DNA of 64,000 nucleotides from Sphingomonas sp. (GTDB taxonomy: Bacteria; Pseudomonadota; Alphaproteobacteria; Sphingomonadales; Sphingomonadaceae). Shown one piece after another: positions 36,991 to 47,967 of the stretch. Below the pieces are notes generated by a model that worked only from the letters and a program-made list of their open reading frames with translations, was not told the DNA's origin and did no database searches. Each line of letters begins with the position of its first letter. Position 1 is the stretch's first letter. Position numbers and translations under genes: made by a program. The DNA lies in NCBI GenBank assembly GCA_046155125.1, contig JBJXEC010000004.1:457-64456 (forward strand). The letters run 5' to 3'.

Positions 36991-37122
36991 CGCTCAGGTC
37001 ATTGACGACGACGCGCTCCGCATCAACCAAATTGCGCGCCGCGCCGGGCGCGCCTTGACAAGGATTCGGCAGTCACTCATGGCTGCGCTGACCTATCCAG
37101 GCTGGCGACATTGCGGGGCGAC

Positions 37123-37896
37123 ATGTCGGTTCAAGCAGTAATATTGGCAGGGGGCCTCGGTAGCAGGCTCGGCGAAGAAACAACTATCCGGCCAAAGCCG
37201 ATGGTTGAGATAGGCGGCATGCCGATTATTTGGCATATCATGAAAATCTATTCATTCTATGGCGTGAATGAATTCATCGTTTGCCTTGGCTATAAAGGCT
37301 ATATGATAAAGGAATATTTCGCCAATTACTTTCTGCATACGTCCGATGTAACCATCGACTTGAAAGAACAGTCGCTCGACGTTCATCAGAATTGGGGCGA
37401 GCCGTGGCGGATTACCCTGGTTGATACAGGGGCCGACACCATGACTGGCGGTCGGCTGAAGCGGGTGCAGCGCTATCTGCGGCCCGACCAGCCGTTTTGC
37501 CTGACCTATGGCGACGGCCTTTCGGACATAAACATTCGCAAGTTACTTGAATTTCACGCAATTCACGGCCGCAGGGCAACCATCACGGCAGTTGCGCCAC
37601 CTGGACGTTTTGGGGCGCTCGAGATGGAGGGCAACATCGTCCGAGCGTTTCGCGAGAAGCCGGCGGGTGATGGCGGCCTCATCAATGGCGGCTTTTTCGT
37701 TCTGCACCCGAGCGTTATTGACCTCATTGAGGGCCCACACACCGTCTGGGAGCAGGGCCCGCTCGAAAAGCTTGCCCATGCAAGCGACTTGGCGGCGTTC
37801 CGCCATGATGGCTTCTGGCAGCCGATGGATACGCTGCGCGATAAGCTGCACCTCGAGCAATTGTGGCAGGACGGCGCGCCCTGGAAGCGCTGGTGA
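37123..37896 (+). CDS. rfbF: glucose-1-phosphate cytidylyltransferase
   Basis: Strongly conserved RfbF/DdhA sequence (VILAGGLGSRLGEETTIRPKPMVEIGGMPIIWHIMKIY). ATG 37123 (the track begins at TTG 37111). Confidence 0.93.
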   Translation: MSVQAVILAGGLGSRLGEETTIRPKPMVEIGGMPIIWHIMKIYSFYGVNEFIVCLGYKGYMIKEYFANYFLHTSDVTIDLKEQSLDVHQNWGEPWRITLVDTGADTMTGGRLKRVQRYLRPDQPFCLTYGDGLSDINIRKLLEFHAIHGRRATITAVAPPGRFGALEMEGNIVRAFREKPAGDGGLINGGFFVLHPSVIDLIEGPHTVWEQGPLEKLAHASDLAAFRHDGFWQPMDTLRDKLHLEQLWQDGAPWKRW

Positions 37897-38975
37897 TGGC
37901 GAGCCCCTGGCCTGGTCGGCGCGTGTTCCTGACGGGGCATACCGGGTTCAAGGGCAGCTGGCTGGCGCTGTGGCTCGCTGATCTGGGCGCGGAAGTGACG
38001 GGCTATGCGCTGGCGCCGCCGACCTCGCCTAGTCTTTATGAGCAGGCTGGCGTCGCGGGGGTCCTGGCACGCGACGTGCGTGGCAATGTCTGTGATTTGG
38101 CGGCCCTTGAGGCAGCGATCGCTGATGCCCGGCCGGATATTGTGTTTCACCTCGCCGCACAGCCGCTGGTGCGCGCCTCTTATGACGACCCGGTGGAAAC
38201 CTATGCCACCAACGTGATGGGCACAGTCCATCTGCTCGAGGCATGCAGGCGCGTGCCCGGCATTAGCGGCGTTGTGTGTGTCACGTCGGACAAATGTTAT
38301 GAAAACCGTGAATGGATCTGGCCGTACCGCGAGAATGATCCGATGGGCGGGCATGATCCGTACAGCAGCTCGAAAGGCGCTGCTGAGCTGGTGATTTCGG
38401 CCTATCGTCGTTCATTCTTTTCTGGCGATGACGCGCCGGGCGTTGCCTCAGTGCGTGCCGGCAATGTGATTGGTGGGGGTGATTGGGCAGCGGACCGGCT
38501 GGTGCCCGATATCGTCCGGGCGCTTGCCGGCGGCAACCGGCCACGCATTCGCGCGCCCGATTCCGTGCGCCCGTGGCAGCATGTGCTGGAGGCGCTGAGC
38601 GGCTATCTGATGATCGCCGAGCGGCTGCTCGAAGGCGACAAAAATGCCGCAATCGCCTGGAATTTTGGCCCGGCAGAGGGCGATACCCGGCCGGTTCGCT
38701 GGATTGTTGACGCGATGTTAACCATCTGGGGTGCTGAAGGGTGGGATCAGCCAGAAGGGGTGCAGCCACACGAAGCGGCGATGCTCCTGCTGGATAGCGC
38801 GCGTGCCCGGTCGCAGCTTGGCTGGCGTCCGGCGCTCGGCTTGGGGGATGCGTTGGCGATGGTGGTTGAATGGCACAAATCGGTGGCAGGCGGCGGCGAT
38901 GCCCGCGACCTTTGCGCCCGGCAATTGAGCGCGTATCGCGCGCGGCGCGCAGCGATTGAGGGAACACGCACATGA
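37896..38975 (+). CDS. rfbG: CDP-glucose 4,6-dehydratase
   Basis: It has the Rossmann motif [14 protein letters not shown] and the catalytic YSSSK (YxxxK). The start shares one nucleotide with the rfbF stop (TGATG). Confidence 0.92.
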
Positions 38976-40357
38976 GCACGGCACCCAAGTTCGACGCGCT
39001 CGATTTCAACGGCGCGATTGCTTCAGGCGATGAAGCGTCGGCCCGCGCGACCATCCTCGATATGGTTGCGGACTATGCCCGCGCCTTCCATTCGCCAAAG
39101 CCGTTTGTACCCGGTCAAAGCGCGGTGCCGGTGTCTGGCAAGGTTTATGGCGCGCCGGAAATGCAGTCGCTGGTGGATTCGGCGCTCGATTTCTGGCTCA
39201 CCACCGGCCGCTTCAACGACGCTTTCGAGGCGCGGCTGGCCGAGCGGCTGGGCGTGCGGCACGCGCTCTCCGTCAATTCGGGGTCATCGGCAAACCTGCT
39301 CGCGCTGTCGTCGCTGACGTCGCATTATCTGCGCGGCGATGCCCTGAAAGCGGGCGATGAGGTGATTACGGTTGCAACCGGCTTTCCAACGACGGTCAAC
39401 CCCTCGCTGCAATATGGCCTGGTGCCGGTGTTCGTCGATGTCGACATTCCAACGTACAACATAATGCCGGAGATGATCGAGGCGGCAGTGTCGCCCAAGA
39501 CCCGCGCCATCATGATCGCCCACACGCTTGGCAACCCGTTTGACCTTGCCGAAGTGATGCGCGTTGCCGAAAAGTATAATCTTTGGGTCGTTGAGGATTG
39601 TTGCGATGCGCTGGGCGCGACCTATGCTGGCCAGGGCGTTGGCACCTTTGGCCATATCGGCACGCTGAGCTTTTACCCCGCGCATCATATTACCATGGGC
39701 GAGGGCGGTGCGGTGTTTACCGACAAGCCGCGGCTGAAGCGCGTTATCGAATCGATGCGCGACTGGGGCCGGGATTGCTGGTGCGCGCCGGGCAAAGACA
39801 ATACGTGCGGCAAGCGCTTTGCCCGCAAGCTCGGCGACCTGCCGATGGGTTATGACCATAAATATACCTATAGTCATGCCGGGTATAACCTGAAGATCAC
39901 TGATATGCAGGCCGCGGTTGGCCTGTCGCAAATGGACCGGCTGGATGATTTCATCGCCGCGCGCCGGGCGAATTTTGCCTTGCTGACGGAATTGCTTCGC
40001 CCGCTTGAAGAGGTGTTCATTCTGCCGGAAGCGACGGCCAACAGCGACCCTTCATGGTTTGGCTATCCGATTACGGTGCGGCAGGGGGCGCGGTTCACCC
40101 GCGATGCTCTCGTCCAGCATCTCGATGCGCATCGGATTGGCACGCGGCTGTTGTTTGGCGGCAATTTAATCCGCCAGCCTTACATGCGGGGCCGCGAGTA
40201 CCGCGTGGTGGGCGATTTGGCCAATGCCAACATCGTCACCGACAATACATTCTGGATCGGCCTTTTCCCGGGCCTCACTCAAGATCATATTGGTTATGCG
40301 ACCGCGCAAATTAAGGACTTTGTTAACCATCAAGGGCATATCACTGGCATCACCTAA
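38972..40357 (+). CDS. rfbH: CDP-6-deoxy-D-xylo-4-hexulose-3-dehydrase (E1; RfbH/DdhC), DegT/DnrJ/EryC1 family
   Basis: 461 aa. The active-site position carries His instead of Lys ([12 protein letters not shown]). A four-Cys spacing C-X57-C-X1-C-X7-C runs from EDCC to [16 protein letters not shown] overlap with rfbG. Confidence 0.88.
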
Positions 40358-40386
40358 TCGGCGGGAAGACACGGGGGATCGCCACG

Positions 40387-41193
40387 GTGAATAGCTACGA
40401 AAAGCGGATGTGCGACATTTTGCGCGAAGGCGCCGACATTGGCGGCTTTCTGGCCGTTAAGGCGGAGTTCGAAGCAGAGGGGACGCGCACCGACGAGCTG
40501 CTCCGCTTGCTGGAAATTGCCCGGCGTGCCGGCGTCAACGTTGGTGTGAAGATTGGCGGGTGCGAAGCGATCCGCGATCTCATCGAATGCCGGCAATTTG
40601 GCGTGGATTACGTCATCGCACCCATGGTTGAGACGCCCTATGCGCTCTCCAAATTTGTGGCTGCGCGTGACAAGGTCTTCACACAGGAGGAGCGCGCCGA
40701 TATCGGCTTTCTGTTCAATGTCGAGACGATCACGACCTTCAACAACTTGGTGGCGATGGGCGAAATCGCTGGCCGCGACAAAGTTGGCATGGTGTTCGGC
40801 CGCGTTGACTTTGCCGGATCGCTGGCGCTGGACCGTCGGGCGGTGAACACGCCCGAGACGACCGATGCCGTGGTGCGCGTCGCAGAAGTGGCAGCCGAGC
40901 ATGATGTCGATCTGGTCGTAGGCGGTGGCGTCAGCCCCGAAGCGGTCGACTCGCTGGTGCGGGTGCGCAAAACGAAGCTGACGCGCTTTGAAACCCGCAA
41001 GATCATTTTTGATGCCGCTTGCCTGGAAGACGGCCGGGTGATGGCGGGGCTTGCCCTCGCGATCGAGTTCGAGCTGCTGTGGCTCAAGAACAAGCGCGAC
41101 TATTATCAGACGATCGGCAGCGAAGACGATGCCCGGATCATGATGATGGAAGCCCGTCAGCGTATCAAGGCTCCGTTGCGCGGTATCGCCTGA
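40387..41193 (+). CDS. HpcH/HpaI aldolase / citrate-lyase-beta-like TIM-barrel protein (family call tentative)
   Basis: 268 aa. It has a KIGG...DYVIAPMVETPYA block reminiscent of PEP/pyruvate-binding TIM barrels. The start is GTG 40387 or ATG 40408. Confidence 0.55.
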   Translation: MNSYEKRMCDILREGADIGGFLAVKAEFEAEGTRTDELLRLLEIARRAGVNVGVKIGGCEAIRDLIECRQFGVDYVIAPMVETPYALSKFVAARDKVFTQEERADIGFLFNVETITTFNNLVAMGEIAGRDKVGMVFGRVDFAGSLALDRRAVNTPETTDAVVRVAEVAAEHDVDLVVGGGVSPEAVDSLVRVRKTKLTRFETRKIIFDAACLEDGRVMAGLALAIEFELLWLKNKRDYYQTIGSEDDARIMMMEARQRIKAPLRGIA

Positions 41194-41235
41194 CCTGATT
41201 TTTCCCCAAAGCGACGGGAGGGGCGATTGGCCCGA

Positions 41236-43092
41236 ATGCGCGTTGCCGATGTGATCGCCCAAACGCTGGTTGCCGGCGGCGTGACCGATATGTTCATGCT
41301 GACCGGCGGCGGCGCCATGCACCTGAACGATGCGTTCGGGCGGGTGGAGGGTCTGAAGCGGCACTTCAACCACCATGAACAGGCCAGTGCGATTGCGGCG
41401 GAGAGCTATGCCCGGCTGTCGGGGCGGATGGCGGCGGTAAACGTCACGACCGGACCCGGCGGCGTCAACGCACTGAACGGCGTGTACGGCGCCTATGTCG
41501 ACTCCATTCCAATGATTATCGTGTCTGGCCAGGTTAAGCGGGAGACTTTCGCGCCCAATTTCGCGCTCGCATTGCGGCAGCTTGGCGACCAGGAAGTCGA
41601 TATTGTGGGCATGGTGCGCGGCATCACCAAATATGCGGTGGTGCTCGACCGGCCTGAGGATGTGCTCAGGATCGTTGGCAAGGCGCTGTGGCTTGCGCGG
41701 CGCGGGCGCGCCGGGCCGGTGTGGATTGACGTGCCGATTGACGTGCAGGGCGCGGTTGTCGAGGTTGAAGCGCTCGACGCATTCGATCCGTCGAGCCTTA
41801 GCCGTGATGGCGAGGCGGCCAATACTGCGGCCGAGGAAGCGGCGCTTGTCGGCGCGGCGCTGGGCGCTGAAGTTGCAGCAATGCTTGGCGAGTTCTGCGC
41901 AGCTGAGCGGCCACTGGTGCTGGTCGGGTCCGGTATCAGGCTGTCGGACACGCACGCGCAGTTCCTGGATTTCATCGAGCGGGTTGGCGCGCCCGTTGTG
42001 ACCGGCTGGAACGCACATGATGCCCTACCTAACGCGCACCCGCTTTATGCCGGACGCCCCGGCACCGTCGGTGATCGCGCCGGGAATTTCGCGGTGCAGT
42101 CCGCCGATTATCTGCTGGTGCTCGGCTCGCGGCTTAACATCCGCCAGATCAGCTATAACTGGAGGTCGTTTGCGTCGGGCGCGCGGATCGCGATGGTGGA
42201 CATTGACCGCGCCGAGCTCGCAAAGCCGACGCTTGCGCTGCACCGGCCGATCCATGCCGATCTTCGCGATTTCTTCGCCGCCGCCGCAGCGATTCCGCTG
42301 GCGGTTGGGCAGGAAAGCGCCCGCGCCGCCTTTGTCGCGCGCTGCCGCGACCGAAGCGAGCAGTTCCCGGTCGTGCTCGATGACTATTGGGCAACGCCCG
42401 CGCCGGTAAATCCCTATTGCTTCACGCAGGCGCTGTTCGATGCGCTGGAGGTGGGCGATGTGGTGGTGTGTGGCGACGGCACGGCTTGCGTAACCACTTT
42501 CCAGGCGGCCAATCTGAAGCCCGGCCAGCGACTTTACACCAATTCGGGCTGTGCCTCGATGGGGTATGATCTGCCTGCCGCCATTGGTGCGGTTCATGCA
42601 GGCGTTGCGCGGCGGATCATTTGTCTTGCCGGCGATGGCAGCATCATGATGAACCTGCAGGAATTGCAGACGATTGCTGGCGAGCGGCTGCCGATCAAGA
42701 TTTTTGTGCTCAACAATGATGGCTATCACTCGATCCGTCAGACGCAGCAGAATTATTTCGCCGATAACATTGTGGGTTGCGGGCCCGATAGCGGGCTGAG
42801 CTTTCCCGATTTCGTCAAAGTCGCCGCCGCCTTCGGCCTGGCGACAAGCCGTGTCGATACCCATGCCGCGCTCGCCGGCGCGATTGGCGCAGCGATCGCC
42901 GGCGACGGCCCGTCGCTATGCGAAGTCATTATCGACAAGGAGCAAGGCTTTGCGCCCAAGCTCGCCTCGCGGCGGCTCGATGATGGCACGATGGTGTCGC
43001 CCGCGCTGCACGACATGGCCCCGTTCCTGCCGCGCGATGTGCTTGCGGCGGCGCTCGACCGGGAACCCGACAAAAACGCCGAGGCAGCATGA
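41236..43092 (+). CDS. thiamine-diphosphate-dependent enzyme, acetolactate-synthase-like three-domain type (YerE-like candidate)
   Basis: 618 aa. The N-terminal Pyr domain reads MLTGGGAMHLNDAF...HHEQASAIAAESYAR. The ThDP-binding motif is GDGSIMMNLQELQTIAGERLPIKIFVLNNDGY (GDG-X-NN). Confidence 0.85.
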   Translation: MRVADVIAQTLVAGGVTDMFMLTGGGAMHLNDAFGRVEGLKRHFNHHEQASAIAAESYARLSGRMAAVNVTTGPGGVNALNGVYGAYVDSIPMIIVSGQVKRETFAPNFALALRQLGDQEVDIVGMVRGITKYAVVLDRPEDVLRIVGKALWLARRGRAGPVWIDVPIDVQGAVVEVEALDAFDPSSLSRDGEAANTAAEEAALVGAALGAEVAAMLGEFCAAERPLVLVGSGIRLSDTHAQFLDFIERVGAPVVTGWNAHDALPNAHPLYAGRPGTVGDRAGNFAVQSADYLLVLGSRLNIRQISYNWRSFASGARIAMVDIDRAELAKPTLALHRPIHADLRDFFAAAAAIPLAVGQESARAAFVARCRDRSEQFPVVLDDYWATPAPVNPYCFTQALFDALEVGDVVVCGDGTACVTTFQAANLKPGQRLYTNSGCASMGYDLPAAIGAVHAGVARRIICLAGDGSIMMNLQELQTIAGERLPIKIFVLNNDGYHSIRQTQQNYFADNIVGCGPDSGLSFPDFVKVAAAFGLATSRVDTHAALAGAIGAAIAGDGPSLCEVIIDKEQGFAPKLASRRLDDGTMVSPALHDMAPFLPRDVLAAALDREPDKNAEAA

Positions 43093-43751
43093 CGCTCGCG
43101 GCGATTTTCGACCTCGATGGTACGCTGGTTGACAGTGCGGCAATCTGTGCCGCGATCCTGAATGCGATGCTCACCGAGCGTGGCGCGCCTGCGGTGCTTG
43201 CCCGGGCCGAGGTTGTGCCGCAGCTGAGCGCGGGCGGGCCGCAAATGGTGGCGGCCTTGCTGGGCGTGTATTGCGGCGATCCGGCACGCGATATCGCGGC
43301 GTTTCGCGCGCGCTATGCGGCAATGCAAACCCCGGCTGACAGCCTGTATCCTGAGGTTCGCTCCGGGCTCAATGTGTTGCACCGGCGCGGGGTGCGGCTG
43401 GGGATTTGTTCCAACAAACCGCAGAATTTGTGCGAAAAGGTGCTGGGTGATCTCGAATTGGCGTCGCTGTTTGTAACAATCGTTGGCGGGCGACCTGCGT
43501 TGCCGCCCAAGCCCGCGCCAGATTTGCTGTTCCAGGCCATGCGGCAAATGGGTGCCGCGCCAGCATCGACGCGGTTTGTCGGTGATAGCGCGCTTGATGG
43601 TGCGTGCGCGCGTGCGGCCGGAGTTACGTTTCTGGGCGTTGCCTATGGGTATGACGCGCTCGACACGCCCGAGTGCCATGCGCGCTTTGGCGATGTAGTC
43701 GATGCGCTGCTGCAAGGCGCCGGCGCGCCGGCCGGAGCGGTTGCCGCATGA
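43089..43751 (+). CDS. HAD family hydrolase (phosphoglycolate-phosphatase-like)
   Basis: It has HAD motif I (IFDLDGTLVDS), then SNK, then a C-terminal GDS..D. ATGA overlaps on both sides. Confidence 0.85.
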   Translation: MTLAAIFDLDGTLVDSAAICAAILNAMLTERGAPAVLARAEVVPQLSAGGPQMVAALLGVYCGDPARDIAAFRARYAAMQTPADSLYPEVRSGLNVLHRRGVRLGICSNKPQNLCEKVLGDLELASLFVTIVGGRPALPPKPAPDLLFQAMRQMGAAPASTRFVGDSALDGACARAAGVTFLGVAYGYDALDTPECHARFGDVVDALLQGAGAPAGAVAA

Positions 43752-44722
43752 CTGTACCGACCCTTCCCGCACACGTCGCCCAAGCGCTGGCGCGGGCGGG
43801 CAAGCGCGTTATCCTTACTGGTGCGAGCGGCTGGCTCGGGCTGGCGACGCTGGAGCTGCTTGAAGGCGTGTTTGGCGCTGCCTTGGCGAGCCGCGTGGTG
43901 TGTTTCGGCGGATCGGCACGCACGCTTGGGCTGCGGTCTGGCACCCGGATCAATCAGTACCCGCTCGACTCAATCGCAGCGCTTGAGCCGATGCCCTCAA
44001 TGGTGCTGCACTTCGCCGCCTTGACGCGCGACCGCGCCGAGGTGATGGCAGAAGCCGACTATCGCGCCTCTGCTCTCGGCATCCGTACCACCGTGCTGGC
44101 AGCGCTTGGCCGGTGCGGCGCGGACGCGGTGTTCCTGGCCTCGTCCGGCGCGGCGGCCCGCGTGGAGGACGCAGCGGCGCCGGCAGCACTTCGTTGCTAT
44201 GGCGACGTCAAGCGCGACGACGAACAGGCGCTTGCCGACTGGGCCGAGGCGACCGGCAATAGCGCGGTGATCGCGCGGATCTTCAATGTGTCGGGCCCCT
44301 ATATCAACAAGACCGGGCATTATGCGCTGTCCACCTTCATTTCGGCAGCACTGGCCGGGCAGCCAATCCGGATAAACGCCGGCCACCGCGTCGAGCGCGG
44401 TTATGTCGCGATCCGCGAATTGATGGCGGTGGTGCTGGCCGAGCTTATCGACAGTACCAGCATGTGCCGCTTCGACGCTGGCGGTGATCCTGTCGAGCTT
44501 GGCACGCTTGCCCAATTGGTCAGCGACGTGCTGGGTCCCGTGCCCATTGTCCGCGCGGCAGCGGCTGACGCGCCGGTTGATCGATATGTCGGCAATGCCA
44601 CTGTGTACCAGACATTGCTCGCCAAGCACCGGATTGCGCCGGTGCCGCTCGCGACTCAAATCGTCGAAACCGCCGACTGGCTCGCCATTGGCGGCACGTC
44701 GGCCGACCGGTGCGCTGCGTGA
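43748..44722 (+). CDS. NAD-dependent epimerase/dehydratase family (extended SDR) protein
   Basis: Trimmed to ATG 43748. It has the Rossmann motif VILTGASGWLGLATLELL and the catalytic YGDVK (YxxxK). Confidence 0.75.
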   Translation: MTVPTLPAHVAQALARAGKRVILTGASGWLGLATLELLEGVFGAALASRVVCFGGSARTLGLRSGTRINQYPLDSIAALEPMPSMVLHFAALTRDRAEVMAEADYRASALGIRTTVLAALGRCGADAVFLASSGAAARVEDAAAPAALRCYGDVKRDDEQALADWAEATGNSAVIARIFNVSGPYINKTGHYALSTFISAALAGQPIRINAGHRVERGYVAIRELMAVVLAELIDSTSMCRFDAGGDPVELGTLAQLVSDVLGPVPIVRAAAADAPVDRYVGNATVYQTLLAKHRIAPVPLATQIVETADWLAIGGTSADRCAA

Positions 44723-44739
44723 CGGTGCCCGGCAGTATC

Positions 44740-45351
44740 ATGGCGTCGCTCATCGCCATCCCCGGCATCCGCGATTGGCGGCTGCGCTGGGCGCTTGTGG
44801 GCATGGCGCTGTTCGTCTGCGGCCTGCTAACATTGTACCCGACCCAATACCGCGCGTCGGCGCTGCTCGCGCCCGCATCGCTTGCCGATATCGGGCTTGG
44901 CGGCACGCTTGGCCAGCCGCTCGCCGTCACCAGCATTTTCGGGGTAAAGGCGCCGGCTGAAGTCGGGCTGGCGATCGCGCGGAGTGCGCCGGTCCGTGCC
45001 CGGGCCGCACGGTTGCTGTGCATTGCGCCCGCCCGCCAGGAGGCAAATGTCATCGTGCGCAGCGCGCGGGGGGGGCTGGTGCTGGTGGAAGCGCGCGATG
45101 CCAGCGCCAACAACGCGCTCGCGCTGGTGGCGTCGCACGTCGCGGCGATGCGGGTGGAACTTGCCGCGCTGTCGCTGCGGGAACGGAGCCGTGCGCGGGC
45201 GTCGTGGCTGCTCATTGACCCGCCCCATGTCGATGTCGGCCGGCCGATCAACTCGCGGCCGCTTGCCGTTGGCGCGCTGATCCTGCTGCTCGCGACCGTC
45301 ATGGAAGTGTATCGCAGGCGGCCGCCGCTGGGTGTCAGGACGGCGCGATGA
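44740..45351 (+). CDS. small bitopic membrane protein, Wzz/PCP-like (tentative)
   Basis: An N-terminal TM is followed by YPTQYRASALL (Wzz-like P-x-Y-x-A). A soluble middle part and a C-terminal TM with a proline-rich tail follow. At about 200 aa it is much shorter than canonical PCPs. The stop overlaps the GT2 start. Confidence 0.4.
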   Translation: MASLIAIPGIRDWRLRWALVGMALFVCGLLTLYPTQYRASALLAPASLADIGLGGTLGQPLAVTSIFGVKAPAEVGLAIARSAPVRARAARLLCIAPARQEANVIVRSARGGLVLVEARDASANNALALVASHVAAMRVELAALSLRERSRARASWLLIDPPHVDVGRPINSRPLAVGALILLLATVMEVYRRRPPLGVRTAR

Positions 45352-46280
45352 CCATCAGCGACGGGCCGGAAATCTCGGTCGTCATTCCGTGCCGCAACGA
45401 AGCGGCAAATGTTGTTGCGATGGCCGCCGCCGTCACAGCAGCGCTGGATGCGGTTAGTGCGACATTCGAGCTCATCTTCATCGACAATGCGTCAACCGAC
45501 ACCACCGCCGCGCTGGTGCGCAATCTGTGCGCCGCTGACCCGCGGATAAAGCTCATCATCAATGCCCGCAATTTCGGCCAGATGCGCTCGCCCACCTATG
45601 GCATTTTCCAGGCGCGTGGCCGGGCGGTGATCGGCATGTGCTGCGACTTTCAGGATCCGCCGGATTTGCTTGGACGCTTTGTCGAGCGGTGGCGCAGCGG
45701 CACTGACATCGTGCTCGGGGTCCGTGAGAGCGAGCGCTCCGGCTGGCGGCTTAAAACAGCGCGCAACCTTGCTTATGGTTTTGCCCTGCGGTTCGGTGAT
45801 TACCCGGTCGTGCGCGATGCGACGGGCTTTGGTTTATATGATGCAAAAGTGGTGCGCGCGATCGCTGCACTCAATGAGCCCGAGCCGTTCTTTCGCGGTA
45901 TGCTCGCCGAAACCGGGTTCAGCATTGCGACCATTCATTACGCACGGCCCGCGCGCGCGGGCGGCAAGTCGAACAATGGCTTCTTCGCGCTGCTCGATTT
46001 TGCGCTGTCCAGCCTGGCCAGCACTTCCAAGAAGCTGATCCGGGTGCCCTTCTATCTTGGGGTAATGGGCATCGCTGCGTCGCTCATGATGCTGCCCGTC
46101 TTGGCGCTCGCGGCACTGGGTGGTGGTGCCTGGCTTGGCTGGCTTGCGGCGAGCGCTGTCGAGCTGCAACTGGGGCTGTTGTTTCTGTTCCTCGGGATCA
46201 TCGGCGATCAGGTTCGGCTGGTATCGGAGCGAACGCGCGGCACGCCGTTGGTCATCGAACGCGAACGGGTTAATTTCTGA
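45348..46280 (+). CDS. family 2 glycosyltransferase, GtrB/ArnC-like polyprenyl-phosphate glycosyltransferase
   Basis: It has VVIPCRNEA, FIDNASTD and CCDFQDPP motifs plus two C-terminal TM helices, as in GtrB-type enzymes. Confidence 0.85.
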   Translation: MTISDGPEISVVIPCRNEAANVVAMAAAVTAALDAVSATFELIFIDNASTDTTAALVRNLCAADPRIKLIINARNFGQMRSPTYGIFQARGRAVIGMCCDFQDPPDLLGRFVERWRSGTDIVLGVRESERSGWRLKTARNLAYGFALRFGDYPVVRDATGFGLYDAKVVRAIAALNEPEPFFRGMLAETGFSIATIHYARPARAGGKSNNGFFALLDFALSSLASTSKKLIRVPFYLGVMGIAASLMMLPVLALAALGGGAWLGWLAASAVELQLGLLFLFLGIIGDQVRLVSERTRGTPLVIERERVNF

Positions 46281-46678
46281 TGGCGCGGCACCAGTTTATC
46301 GCAGCGCCGCCTGTGGCGACATCGCTTGCGCAATTGTTGCGCTATTATCAGGTGGGCTTGGTCAATACTGGCTTTGGCTTTGCCTGTTATGCGGGGCTGG
46401 TGGCGCTTGGTCTCAACATCTTTGCGGCACAACTCGTCGCTTACGTGGCTGGCGCAAGCTTTAACTACATCACCTATCGACGCTTCGTTTTTGTCGGCGC
46501 AGCGCCTGCGGGCCGGCGGTTTGCGGCATCCTATCTTGTGCATTATCTGCTGAGCGCTGCCATCCTGGCCGGGCTGGTTCGCCTTATCCCATCGCCCTAT
46601 CTCGCTGGCCTGGTCACGGTGCTGGTCGCGTCGCTGGTCAATTATGTCGCGCTCAAGCGCCTGGTGTTTGCCCGGTGA
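46280..46678 (+). CDS. GtrA family membrane protein (putative lipid-linked sugar translocase)
   Basis: 132 aa with four TM helices. It has a GtrA-like pattern (YYQVGLVNTGFGFACY, FNYITYRRFVF, VNYVALKRLVF). Confidence 0.8.
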   Translation: MARHQFIAAPPVATSLAQLLRYYQVGLVNTGFGFACYAGLVALGLNIFAAQLVAYVAGASFNYITYRRFVFVGAAPAGRRFAASYLVHYLLSAAILAGLVRLIPSPYLAGLVTVLVASLVNYVALKRLVFAR

Positions 46679-47967
46679 TGCCGCCGCGATCGCCCGCCAC
46701 GCGCAATTTGTGGCTTGAGCGCTGGCTTGGCCGAATGATTCTGGCGGCGCTGGCCTGGGTGCTGTTGACGGGCGTCTATGCACATCATTTGCCGCCACCG
46801 ATGTACTATTTTTCCGGCGACCGGATGATGGACTGGTTCAACACCGCATTTTGGGCGCGGGATGCCGGCATGTATGACAATTGGGGGAGCATTTATCCGC
46901 CATTGTCGTTCCTGCTGCTCCGGCTACTGGGCGATACCGGCTGCTATCCGGCATTCGACGGCGTGGCCGCGCGAGCGTGCGATACGGCAGGGATGTTGGC
47001 GATTCACGCACTATACGTGCTGGACGTGGTCCTTATCGCCCGGGCTTTCCTGAAGATCGACCGTGCAACCGCTGTGCCGCGCGCTATCGCGCTATCGGCA
47101 GGCTTGCCGCTCGTTTACGCGCTCGACCGGGGCAATCTGATGCTCGCCTGCGTGCCGTGTGTGGTGCTCGGCGTTGGCCCGCTATGCCGGGCCAGCTGGG
47201 CGCGAGCCGCGTGGGTCGGTGCTGCACTGAACTTCAAAGTATATTTGCTGGGCGCGGTGGTCGCGCAGATCGCTGGCGGCAAATGGCGGCGGGTGGAGCG
47301 CGCGCTGATCGCGGCAGTTGGCGTGTATCTTGTGAGCTTTGCGCTGCTCGGCCTGGGCACGCCTGGCGAGATCGCGCAGGATCTGATCGCGTTTGGCAGC
47401 GGTGATGCCCCGCGACTGATCGATCTTTGGTATCCCTCAAGCTTTGTGCCGCTGCGCTCACTGCTCATCGCGGACAATCCGCAGCTGCTGGCGCTGCTCG
47501 GACCAGACGTTGGCGGCGCGCTGATCGTTGGGCTTCCCTGGGCGGTTCATGCCGTGCAACTGTGCATCGTGGCAGCGCTGGCGGCTGCCTGGATCCGGCC
47601 GGGCGCGGTGCCGACCTATCGGCTGGCCGGGCTGGGCGCAGCGCTTGCGCTAATCAGCGTCGAGGCAGGCGGCTATGCGCAGTGGTTTGTGCTGTTTTTC
47701 GTGATGATCGAGCGCTGGGAAGCGGGCTTTGGCGCGAAATGGGCGATTTTGACGTGTTACGCCCTGTGCATGCCCCTTGACATCGTGTTGGCAGCGGCCC
47801 CGCAAGGCGCTGGCTTCCCGCCGCTCACTCTCGGTCATTTTCTGCGCCCTGCGATGCTGGCGTCGATTCCGCTGGCGCTGTCGCTGGAAACGTTGGCCCG
47901 GGCTTGGCGTACCCTGCGCGCGGGCCGTGCTGTGGCAAATTCGACTATGGACCCGCTCGCTGTCTGA
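46675..47967 (+). CDS. polytopic membrane protein, GT-C fold glycosyltransferase candidate (DUF2029/GT87-like)
   Basis: 430 aa with more than 10 TM helices. The first loop carries acidic residues (SGDRMMDWF) and an IYPPLSF motif. It sits in the position of GtrC in Gtr clusters. Confidence 0.55.
   Translation: MMPPRSPATRNLWLERWLGRMILAALAWVLLTGVYAHHLPPPMYYFSGDRMMDWFNTAFWARDAGMYDNWGSIYPPLSFLLLRLLGDTGCYPAFDGVAARACDTAGMLAIHALYVLDVVLIARAFLKIDRATAVPRAIALSAGLPLVYALDRGNLMLACVPCVVLGVGPLCRASWARAAWVGAALNFKVYLLGAVVAQIAGGKWRRVERALIAAVGVYLVSFALLGLGTPGEIAQDLIAFGSGDAPRLIDLWYPSSFVPLRSLLIADNPQLLALLGPDVGGALIVGLPWAVHAVQLCIVAALAAAWIRPGAVPTYRLAGLGAALALISVEAGGYAQWFVLFFVMIERWEAGFGAKWAILTCYALCMPLDIVLAAAPQGAGFPPLTLGHFLRPAMLASIPLALSLETLARAWRTLRAGRAVANSTMDPLAV

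Follow-up and report, generated by a model that had tools for sequence, protein, structure and literature searches.

An E1-type CDP-sugar 3-dehydrase encoded without a dedicated E3 reductase in a candidate branched-sugar operon of Sphingomonas

Textbook accounts of 3,6-dideoxyhexose formation treat the reductase E3 (AscD/DdhD/RfbI) as the obligate partner of the dehydrase E1 (AscC/DdhC/RfbH). E1 and the spinosyn-pathway enzyme SpnQ both carry a four-cysteine [2Fe–2S] motif and a catalytic histidine that replaces lysine (PMC8987622), and SpnQ uses ferredoxin/ferredoxin-reductase or flavodoxin/flavodoxin-reductase pairs in place of E3 (PMC8987622). Here we analyse rfbH (ddhC), a gene for an E1-type cytidine diphosphate (CDP)-sugar 3-dehydrase, in a 64,000-nucleotide (nt) stretch of Sphingomonas sp. 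DNA (assembly GCA_046155125.1, contig JBJXEC010000004.1, positions 457 to 64,456), which we refer to as the window. We propose that this gene encodes a functional E1 orthologue that has no dedicated E3 and probably draws its electrons, as SpnQ does, from non-dedicated cellular ferredoxin or flavodoxin carriers. The window locus and a survey of its closest relatives depart from the textbook rule: in many lineages that are wholly devoid of E3, close CDP-type E1 orthologues retain their Fe–S ligands.

The window encodes an intact E1-type dehydrase

The open reading frame (ORF) at 38972–40357 (+ strand) is intact and encodes a protein of 461 amino acids (aa), which matches the RfbH equivalog NF011936 at 724.9 bits (cut-off 423; model positions 6–438 of 440) and the Pfam family DegT_DnrJ_EryC1 at 331.7 bits. 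Its best match among solved structures is E1 of Yersinia pseudotuberculosis (PDB 3bcx; E value 1.3e-190, 637 bits), to which it aligns without a gap, query residues 24–451 lying on chain residues 6–433. His238 (codon 39683–39685), in the stretch [12 protein letters not shown] that begins at residue 235, aligns with E1 His220, the corresponding triplet being AHH in 3bcx and AKH in the H220K mutant 3bb8; His238 occupies the position of the Schiff-base lysine of aminotransferases. The protein has five cysteines in total (210, 211, 269, 271 and 279), and the computed spacing of Cys211, 269, 271 and 279 is exactly C-X57-C-X1-C-X7-C. A constant offset of 18 places these four on E1 Cys193, 251, 253 and 261, which we take to be the cluster ligands reported by Agnihotri et al. 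2004.

A preliminary description of this DNA had named the gene an RfbH/E1 dehydrase, read histidine at the position of the lysine that binds pyridoxal 5′-phosphate (PLP) and counted the cysteine spacing by hand. All three points hold, and the alignment with Y. pseudotuberculosis E1 that it had proposed as a check places the histidine and each of the four cysteines on its counterpart. The start codon of rfbH overlaps the stop codon of rfbG as ATGA, through which rfbH is translationally coupled to rfbG; rfbF and rfbG stand immediately upstream of rfbH and overlap each other in turn. The protein is 78–81% identical to sphingomonad orthologues, with all catalytic residues retained. Judged by the equivalog score, the histidine in place of lysine, the four-cysteine motif and the coupling to genes for a cytidylyltransferase and a CDP-glucose 4,6-dehydratase, the product of 38972–40357 is a true, intact E1-type (RfbH/DdhC/AscC) 3-dehydrase.

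The genome contains no E3 homologue

rfbH is the third gene of an eleven-gene operon on the + strand (37111–47967). We scanned all eleven ORFs against Pfam, and the first ten against NCBIfam too; none of the eleven contains a Fer2, FAD_binding_6 or NAD_binding_1 domain in Pfam, in agreement with the preliminary description, which had noted no E3 reductase gene between 37.1 and 48.0 kb. Genome-wide scans for the same three domains gave zero matches on the contig that holds the window.

The assembly comprises 2.67 Mb in 233 contigs and is 94% complete and 2% contaminated. Our positive control was a 324-aa E3 of Aeromonas lusitana, which is encoded directly upstream of ddhA-ddhB-ddhC and contains Fer2, FAD_binding_6 and NAD_binding_1. 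A phmmer search of the Sphingomonas genome with this protein returned nothing, even at an E value of 10; a hidden Markov model (HMM) of ten E3s, which scores 444 bits in the control genome, gave a sole match of 11 bits to a ferredoxin domain; and a six-frame protein search for E3 likewise returned nothing. PF00970 had no match in the genome. The single PF00175 match lies in a 1064-aa CYP102-like fusion of P450, flavodoxin, FAD and NAD domains, and this NAD_binding_1 match was rejected as an E3. The five matches to PF00111 (Fer2) were rejected as well, none being fused to a flavin reductase: they are three CoxS-type small subunits and two adrenodoxin-type ferredoxins of about 105–110 aa, and the gene for one of these ferredoxins comes after a cysteine-desulfurase-like gene. 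With phmmer, the ten-E3 HMM, the six-frame search and the three Pfam families all negative, an unlinked E3 homologue in this genome is rejected, and the reductase of a two-component E1/E3 system (ddhC with ddhD) is missing from a genome that is 94% complete. The genome search for a DdhD/AscD homologue that the preliminary description had proposed therefore found none, either near the operon on the contig or elsewhere.

The gene for the CYP102-like protein (genome G000, contig C150; L087:135–4255) is located immediately downstream of a gene that scores well as an HpcH/HpaI aldolase or citrate-lyase-like protein.

Linked E3 genes fall in only one part of the RfbH tree

We surveyed the 80 closest rfbH loci of public genomes, scoring E3 within 10 kb of rfbH and genome-wide, and distinguished orphan E3-like reductases (288–365 bits), generic reductases (100–265 bits) and genomes with nothing at an E value of 1e-30. 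With the window counted, E3 is linked to rfbH in 11 of 81 loci, directly upstream of rfbF in those inspected. Only an orphan, unlinked E3-like reductase is present in 15, only generic, weaker-scoring reductases of E3 architecture in 23, and no E3-type reductase in 32 including the window (31 of 80 without it). Among the isolates in this last class are Caulobacter sp. Root1455, Methylobacterium symbioticum, Ciceribacter sichuanensis and Microcoleus sp. B6-A1; metagenome bins account for many of its other genomes, so that single absences among them are weaker evidence. Most of the 80 closest rfbH loci lack E3, and the window operon is no special case in this respect. Several genomes with a linked E3 also contain an orphan-type reductase, and the orphan type is therefore probably a paralogue and not a displaced E3. 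One such orphan, in Janthinobacterium sp. CG3 (L088:6024–7073, − strand), is a Fer2-FNR reductase adjoining a major facilitator superfamily (MFS) transporter, and similar cases occur in 14 other genomes.

His238 and the four cysteines are invariant in all 81 RfbH proteins (the 80 closest and that of the window), every E3-less one included, and the cluster is therefore still under selection where E3 is absent. A maximum-likelihood tree of these proteins splits into two halves with modest support (0.81). One half, mostly gamma- and betaproteobacteria, accounts for every linked E3 and for 14 of the 15 orphan-type cases. The other (n = 41), drawn from alphaproteobacteria, Chloroflexi, Deinococcota, cyanobacteria, Actinomycetota and Acidobacteriota, lacks linked E3s and contributes a single orphan-type case. 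E3 linkage is thus confined to one part of the RfbH tree. A tryptophan, Trp270 (39779–39781), stands between two adjacent cysteine ligands of the window protein, as it does in 83% of the E3-less half, whereas the E3-linked proteins have tyrosine there without exception. We rejected this residue as a marker of E3 independence: E3-less Pseudomonas proteins and those of two complete E3-less sphingomonads also have tyrosine, so that the residue follows phylogeny and not the presence of E3. Further residues that split the two halves, valine versus cysteine at 316 (39917–39919) and phenylalanine versus glycine at 74, likewise track phylogeny and not E3.

The sphingomonad clade that contains the window protein has a support of 1.0, and its 12 members, without exception, come from genomes with either no E3 match or weaker generic ones of at most 201 bits. 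Some sphingomonads have reductase matches of 170–200 bits; the example that we inspected, from Sphingobium chungbukense DJ77, proved to be BenC adjoining BenA and was rejected as an E3. rfbH itself occurs in 4 of 151 sampled genomes of the order, the window genome included. The other three are 99–100% complete (in 1, 2 and 8 contigs), and their best matches to the E3 profile are 61 bits, 35 bits and none, all of them partial. Sphingomonas antarctica CIP111604T, whose RfbH is 81% identical to that of the window and whose operon has the same layout, has no E3 genome-wide. Taken together, these data show that the lineage has no dedicated E3. As an alternative to a truncated or rerouted pathway, the preliminary description had suggested that an unlinked reductase serves E1. 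This idea can hold only for a reductase that is not an E3 homologue; it falls for DdhD/AscD, of which there is none in the window genome or in the three rfbH-containing genomes that are 99–100% complete.

The rfbH of another genome of the window's genus (G138) is only 56.5% identical to that of the window; this divergent copy and the rarity of rfbH in the order suggest separate acquisitions.

The same tailoring genes accompany E3-containing and E3-less modules

In a published scheme for sugars with a long acyl branch (erwiniose, caryophyllose and gastriose), an aldolase makes a hydroxylated 2-keto acid (PMC9306805), which a YerE-like thiamine diphosphate (ThDP) enzyme joins to CDP-4-keto-3,6-dideoxyglucose before a NAD(P)H reductase completes the branch (PMC9306805). 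By analogy with this scheme, the aldolase-like protein encoded directly after rfbH (Table 1) is likely to be the maker of the side-chain 2-keto acid, and the ThDP enzyme encoded after it would be the branching carboligase, which requires a 4-keto sugar as acceptor. The gene combination of the operon fits the scheme, and E1 would therefore be needed to supply the 3-deoxy-4-keto acceptor.

Sphingomonas fuzhouensis SGZ-02 (L038:964–11278) has the same tailoring set as the window at 50–72% identity (aldolase-like protein 64%, ThDP enzyme 72%, phosphatase of the haloacid dehalogenase (HAD) family 51%, short-chain dehydrogenase/reductase (SDR) 50%, family 2 glycosyltransferase (GT2) 62% and GtrA-like protein 51%). 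There, the tailoring genes are divergent from an E3-rfbF-rfbG-rfbH module, in which E3 is encoded at L038:7137–8090 and whose RfbH is only 64.5% identical to that of the window and falls in the half of the tree that contains E3. The pair resembles a naturally occurring exchange of entry modules. Given their sequence identity, the tailoring enzymes of the two species most likely act on the same substrate; if so, the E3-less rfbF, rfbG and rfbH of the window should yield the same CDP-4-keto-3,6-dideoxyglucose. This comparison of sequences suggests that the E3-less module feeds the same pathway as the E3-containing one.

Electron supply to an E1 without E3

In the pathway that we propose, homology suggests that RfbF and RfbG would together produce CDP-4-keto-6-deoxyglucose. 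E1 would form a Schiff base between this sugar and pyridoxamine 5′-phosphate (PMP), and proton abstraction by His238 would expel the 3-OH group, as predicted from its homologue. Two one-electron reductions of the resulting glucoseen–PMP adduct, via the Cys211/269/271/279 cluster, would then give CDP-4-keto-3,6-dideoxyglucose. This would be the acceptor for the block of aldolase, YerE-like ThDP enzyme and SDR, which would build a long branch at C-4, and a triad of GT2, GtrA and a GT-C-type glycosyltransferase would export the sugar on a lipid carrier. E1 appears still to use its cluster, because the ligands are strictly conserved in the absence of E3, and by analogy with SpnQ the electrons probably come from general ferredoxin/ferredoxin-reductase or flavodoxin proteins.

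Candidates for such a supply are present in the window genome: one putidaredoxin-reductase-type NAD(P)H–ferredoxin reductase (L091:532–1764; 410 aa, with Pyr_redox_2 and Reductase_C domains), the two adrenodoxin-type [2Fe–2S] ferredoxins (L002:1474–1806 and L003:1450–1767) and a flavodoxin-like match on contig C164, with the P450–reductase fusion also among the redox proteins of this genome. The absence of a dedicated reductase and the presence of general ferredoxin and flavodoxin systems are what an SpnQ-like mode would look like in a genome, and E1 of the window probably resembles SpnQ in its electron supply. Several points weigh against this account. The candidate carriers are unspecific and present in almost every bacterium, and their link to E1 is drawn by analogy; SpnQ is a more distant homologue and acts on a thymidine diphosphate (TDP) sugar, and the literature that we consulted describes E3 alone as donor for E1 of Yersinia, which is closely related and of the CDP type. 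At 94% completeness, a small gene could be missing from the genome. When the ORFs lying within 9 kb of rfbH at the 81 loci were clustered all against all, no conserved alternative redox family emerged in the E3-less ones, and the ferredoxin motif C-x2-C-x2-C-x3-C-P occurs in none of the 81 loci and nowhere in the window. The missing conserved redox gene fits a housekeeping donor, yet it is negative evidence only. For the product sugar, we found no chemical report from any sphingomonad.

We considered other ways in which E1 might obtain, or do without, its electrons. A dedicated donor without homology to E3 strikes us as unlikely. It could be an unrecognised protein encoded elsewhere, or the flavin of the operon's YerE-like ThDP enzyme, which would supply the E1 cluster with electrons released by 2-keto-acid decarboxylation. 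The title of Chen et al. 1998 describes YerE as a ThDP-dependent flavoprotein. ThDP homologues occur in 45 of the 81 rfbH loci and, among loci with full flanks, in 22 of 32 that lack E3 versus 3 of 9 that are linked to it. Five full-flank loci in genomes devoid of any E3-like reductase nevertheless have no ThDP gene, S. fuzhouensis has E3 and the ThDP enzyme together, and no gene family other than rfbH is common to all E3-less loci. Moreover, acetolactate-synthase-type enzymes usually have a redox-inactive flavin, which counts against such a donor. Enriched in E3-less loci but not universal there, the ThDP flavoenzyme was rejected as a universal electron source. A broader version, in which the E1/E3 pair of Yersinia and Salmonella is the exception and many CDP-type E1s of alphaproteobacteria, Chloroflexi, Deinococcota, cyanobacteria and others use a specific donor in place of E3 or of unspecific housekeeping carriers, seems to us unlikely; candidates for it may be the flavin of the co-encoded ThDP enzyme or one particular ferredoxin of the adrenodoxin type.

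Alternatively, E1 might need no external electrons and act either like ColD, with an enamine hydrolysed and PMP restored by transamination, or as a 4-aminotransferase, in a pathway unlike that of Yersinia. ColD achieves 3-deoxygenation without E3, and SpnQ deprived of a reductase shows aminotransferase activity (PMC8987622). ColD, however, has no Fe–S cluster (PMC8987622), whereas here the four cysteines are invariant in every E3-less protein; a ColD-type enzyme would be redox-neutral and free of these cysteines, and the window protein has all four. It also matches E1 at 637 bits versus 179 for ColD, E1 itself shows no transaminase activity under SpnQ-like conditions (PMC8987622), and the downstream ThDP enzyme requires a 4-keto and not a 4-amino sugar as acceptor (PMC9306805). 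We regard this reading as quite improbable. That a true E3 gene lies in the 6% of the genome that is unassembled is very improbable in our view. An assembly of 233 contigs that is 94% complete leaves room for it, but neither the three nearly or fully complete rfbH-containing relatives nor S. antarctica have an E3, the best of the generic matches in the well-supported sphingomonad clade is BenC, and the place directly upstream of rfbF, where linked E3s sit in the loci inspected, is taken in the window by an intergenic region facing a TonB-dependent receptor gene. Hardly credible is the idea that rfbH is a non-functional relic and that the ThDP enzyme branches CDP-4-keto-6-deoxyglucose directly: nothing beyond the absence of E3 speaks for it, and rfbH has an intact frame coupled to rfbG, has kept all its catalytic residues and its close identity to sphingomonad orthologues, and is retained in every related operon. 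The suggestion of the preliminary description that the pathway stops or branches differently is accordingly unlikely, with the four cysteines invariant in E3-less homologues and the same tailoring genes standing alongside ddhDABC in S. fuzhouensis.

Operon and neighbouring genes

The coordinates of the eleven genes and of the putative cluster ligands are given in Table 1. Upstream, the operon is flanked by unrelated genes for aminopeptidase N, a class-V aminotransferase, a GntR regulator, acetyl-CoA synthetase and the TonB-dependent receptor; downstream lie motA and motB, which are also unrelated. The longest ORF for the SDR shares 79 nt with the HAD gene (43673–43751), and its actual start is probably a later codon close to the HAD stop. 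The last gene, whose product resembles GT87, has a counterpart of 42% identity behind GT2 and GtrA in S. antarctica.

Table 1. Genes of the rfbH operon and codons of the predicted E1 cluster ligands in the window.
Feature	Coordinates	Strand	Evidence
rfbF/ddhA, glucose-1-phosphate cytidylyltransferase	37111..37896	+	TIGR02623 equivalog, 433.6 bits vs cut-off 300
rfbG/ddhB, CDP-glucose 4,6-dehydratase	37863..38975	+	TIGR02622 equivalog, 474.2 bits vs cut-off 278
rfbH/ddhC, E1: PMP- and [2Fe–2S]-type CDP-4-keto-6-deoxy-D-glucose 3-dehydrase	38972..40357	+	NF011936 and PDB 3bcx
Four putative [2Fe–2S] ligand codons in rfbH	39602..39808	+	Cys211 39602-39604, Cys269 39776-39778, Cys271 39782-39784, Cys279 39806-39808
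Weak HpcH/HpaI-type aldolase-like protein	40387..41193	+	PF03328, 26 bits vs cut-off 25
YerE-like ThDP enzyme, acetolactate-synthase fold	41227..43092	+	TPP_enzyme_N, M and C domains
HAD-family phosphatase	43089..43751	+	PF13419, 99 bits; phosphoglycolate-phosphatase model below cut-off
Extended SDR, YerF-like side-chain ketoreductase candidate	43673..44722	+	PF01370, 55.9 bits
213-aa protein	44710..45351	+	No Pfam or NCBIfam family match
GT2 glycosyltransferase, polyprenyl-phosphate type	45348..46280	+	PF00535, 78.5 bits; PgfS and ArnC weak, both below cut-off
GtrA-like small membrane protein	46280..46678	+	PF04138, 56.6 bits
Candidate lipid-carrier-dependent GT-C-type glycosyltransferase	46675..47967	+	PF09594 GT87, 19 bits, below cut-off

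The gene 3′ of rfbH varies among related sphingomonad operons. In the window and in S. antarctica it encodes the weakly matching HpcH/HpaI-like aldolase; in Sphingobium chungbukense and genome G217 (L010:11359–12471 and L093:11481–12587), its product is a SAF-domain-containing phosphoenolpyruvate-condensing enzyme of the NeuB family. This alternation suggests differing side chains on one sugar core.

Comparison with known systems

The same branched-sugar tailoring genes are paired with entry modules that contain E3 in one case and lack it in the other, and for annotation the absence of ddhD should not be taken to mean a broken pathway. In the enzymatic synthesis of CDP-4-keto-3,6-dideoxyglucose or of branched sugars, general reductases may serve.

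E1 of Y. pseudotuberculosis shares with the window protein its fold and length, the catalytic histidine (His220 in Yersinia), the C-X57-C-X1-C-X7-C spacing and the upstream rfbF and rfbG. It differs in having the reductase E3, which has no homologue in the operon, contig or genome of the window; in Cys257, which lies outside the spaced motif and is lysine in the window protein; and in the residue between the adjacent ligands, tyrosine in Yersinia and tryptophan here. ColD, the guanosine diphosphate (GDP)-4-keto-6-deoxymannose 3-dehydratase (PDB 2gms), has the same aminotransferase-derived fold and histidine in place of lysine, but it carries no Fe–S cluster and needs no reductase, and its lower-scoring alignment with the window protein is gapped in the cysteine region. 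The sugar clusters for erwiniose, caryophyllose (MMAR_2331/2332) and gastriose and that of Rhodopseudomonas palustris CGA009 (PMC9306805) combine, as the window does, genes for CDP-4-keto-3,6-dideoxyglucose with those for an aldolase, an NAD(P)H reductase and a ThDP enzyme of the YerE kind; compared with them, the operon of the window adds the HAD phosphatase and the export triad of GT2, GtrA and GT-C. The window operon itself has no E3. The branched 3,6-dideoxy sugars of Mycobacterium marinum and R. palustris CGA009 have an established chemistry.

SpnQ, the TDP-4-keto-2,6-dideoxyglucose 3-dehydrase of the spinosyn pathway, is of the E1 type, with the histidine and the [2Fe–2S] motif, and has no dedicated E3 (PMC8987622). 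It handles a TDP-2,6-dideoxy sugar in actinomycete secondary metabolism, whereas the window protein is a CDP-type RfbH coupled to a cytidylyltransferase; the two are likened here on the published description of SpnQ. An E1 without E3 is not a new kind of system, SpnQ being the published precedent. What the window locus adds is a clean comparison with the E3-containing version of the pathway in S. fuzhouensis, and the limitation of E3 linkage to one part of the RfbH tree.

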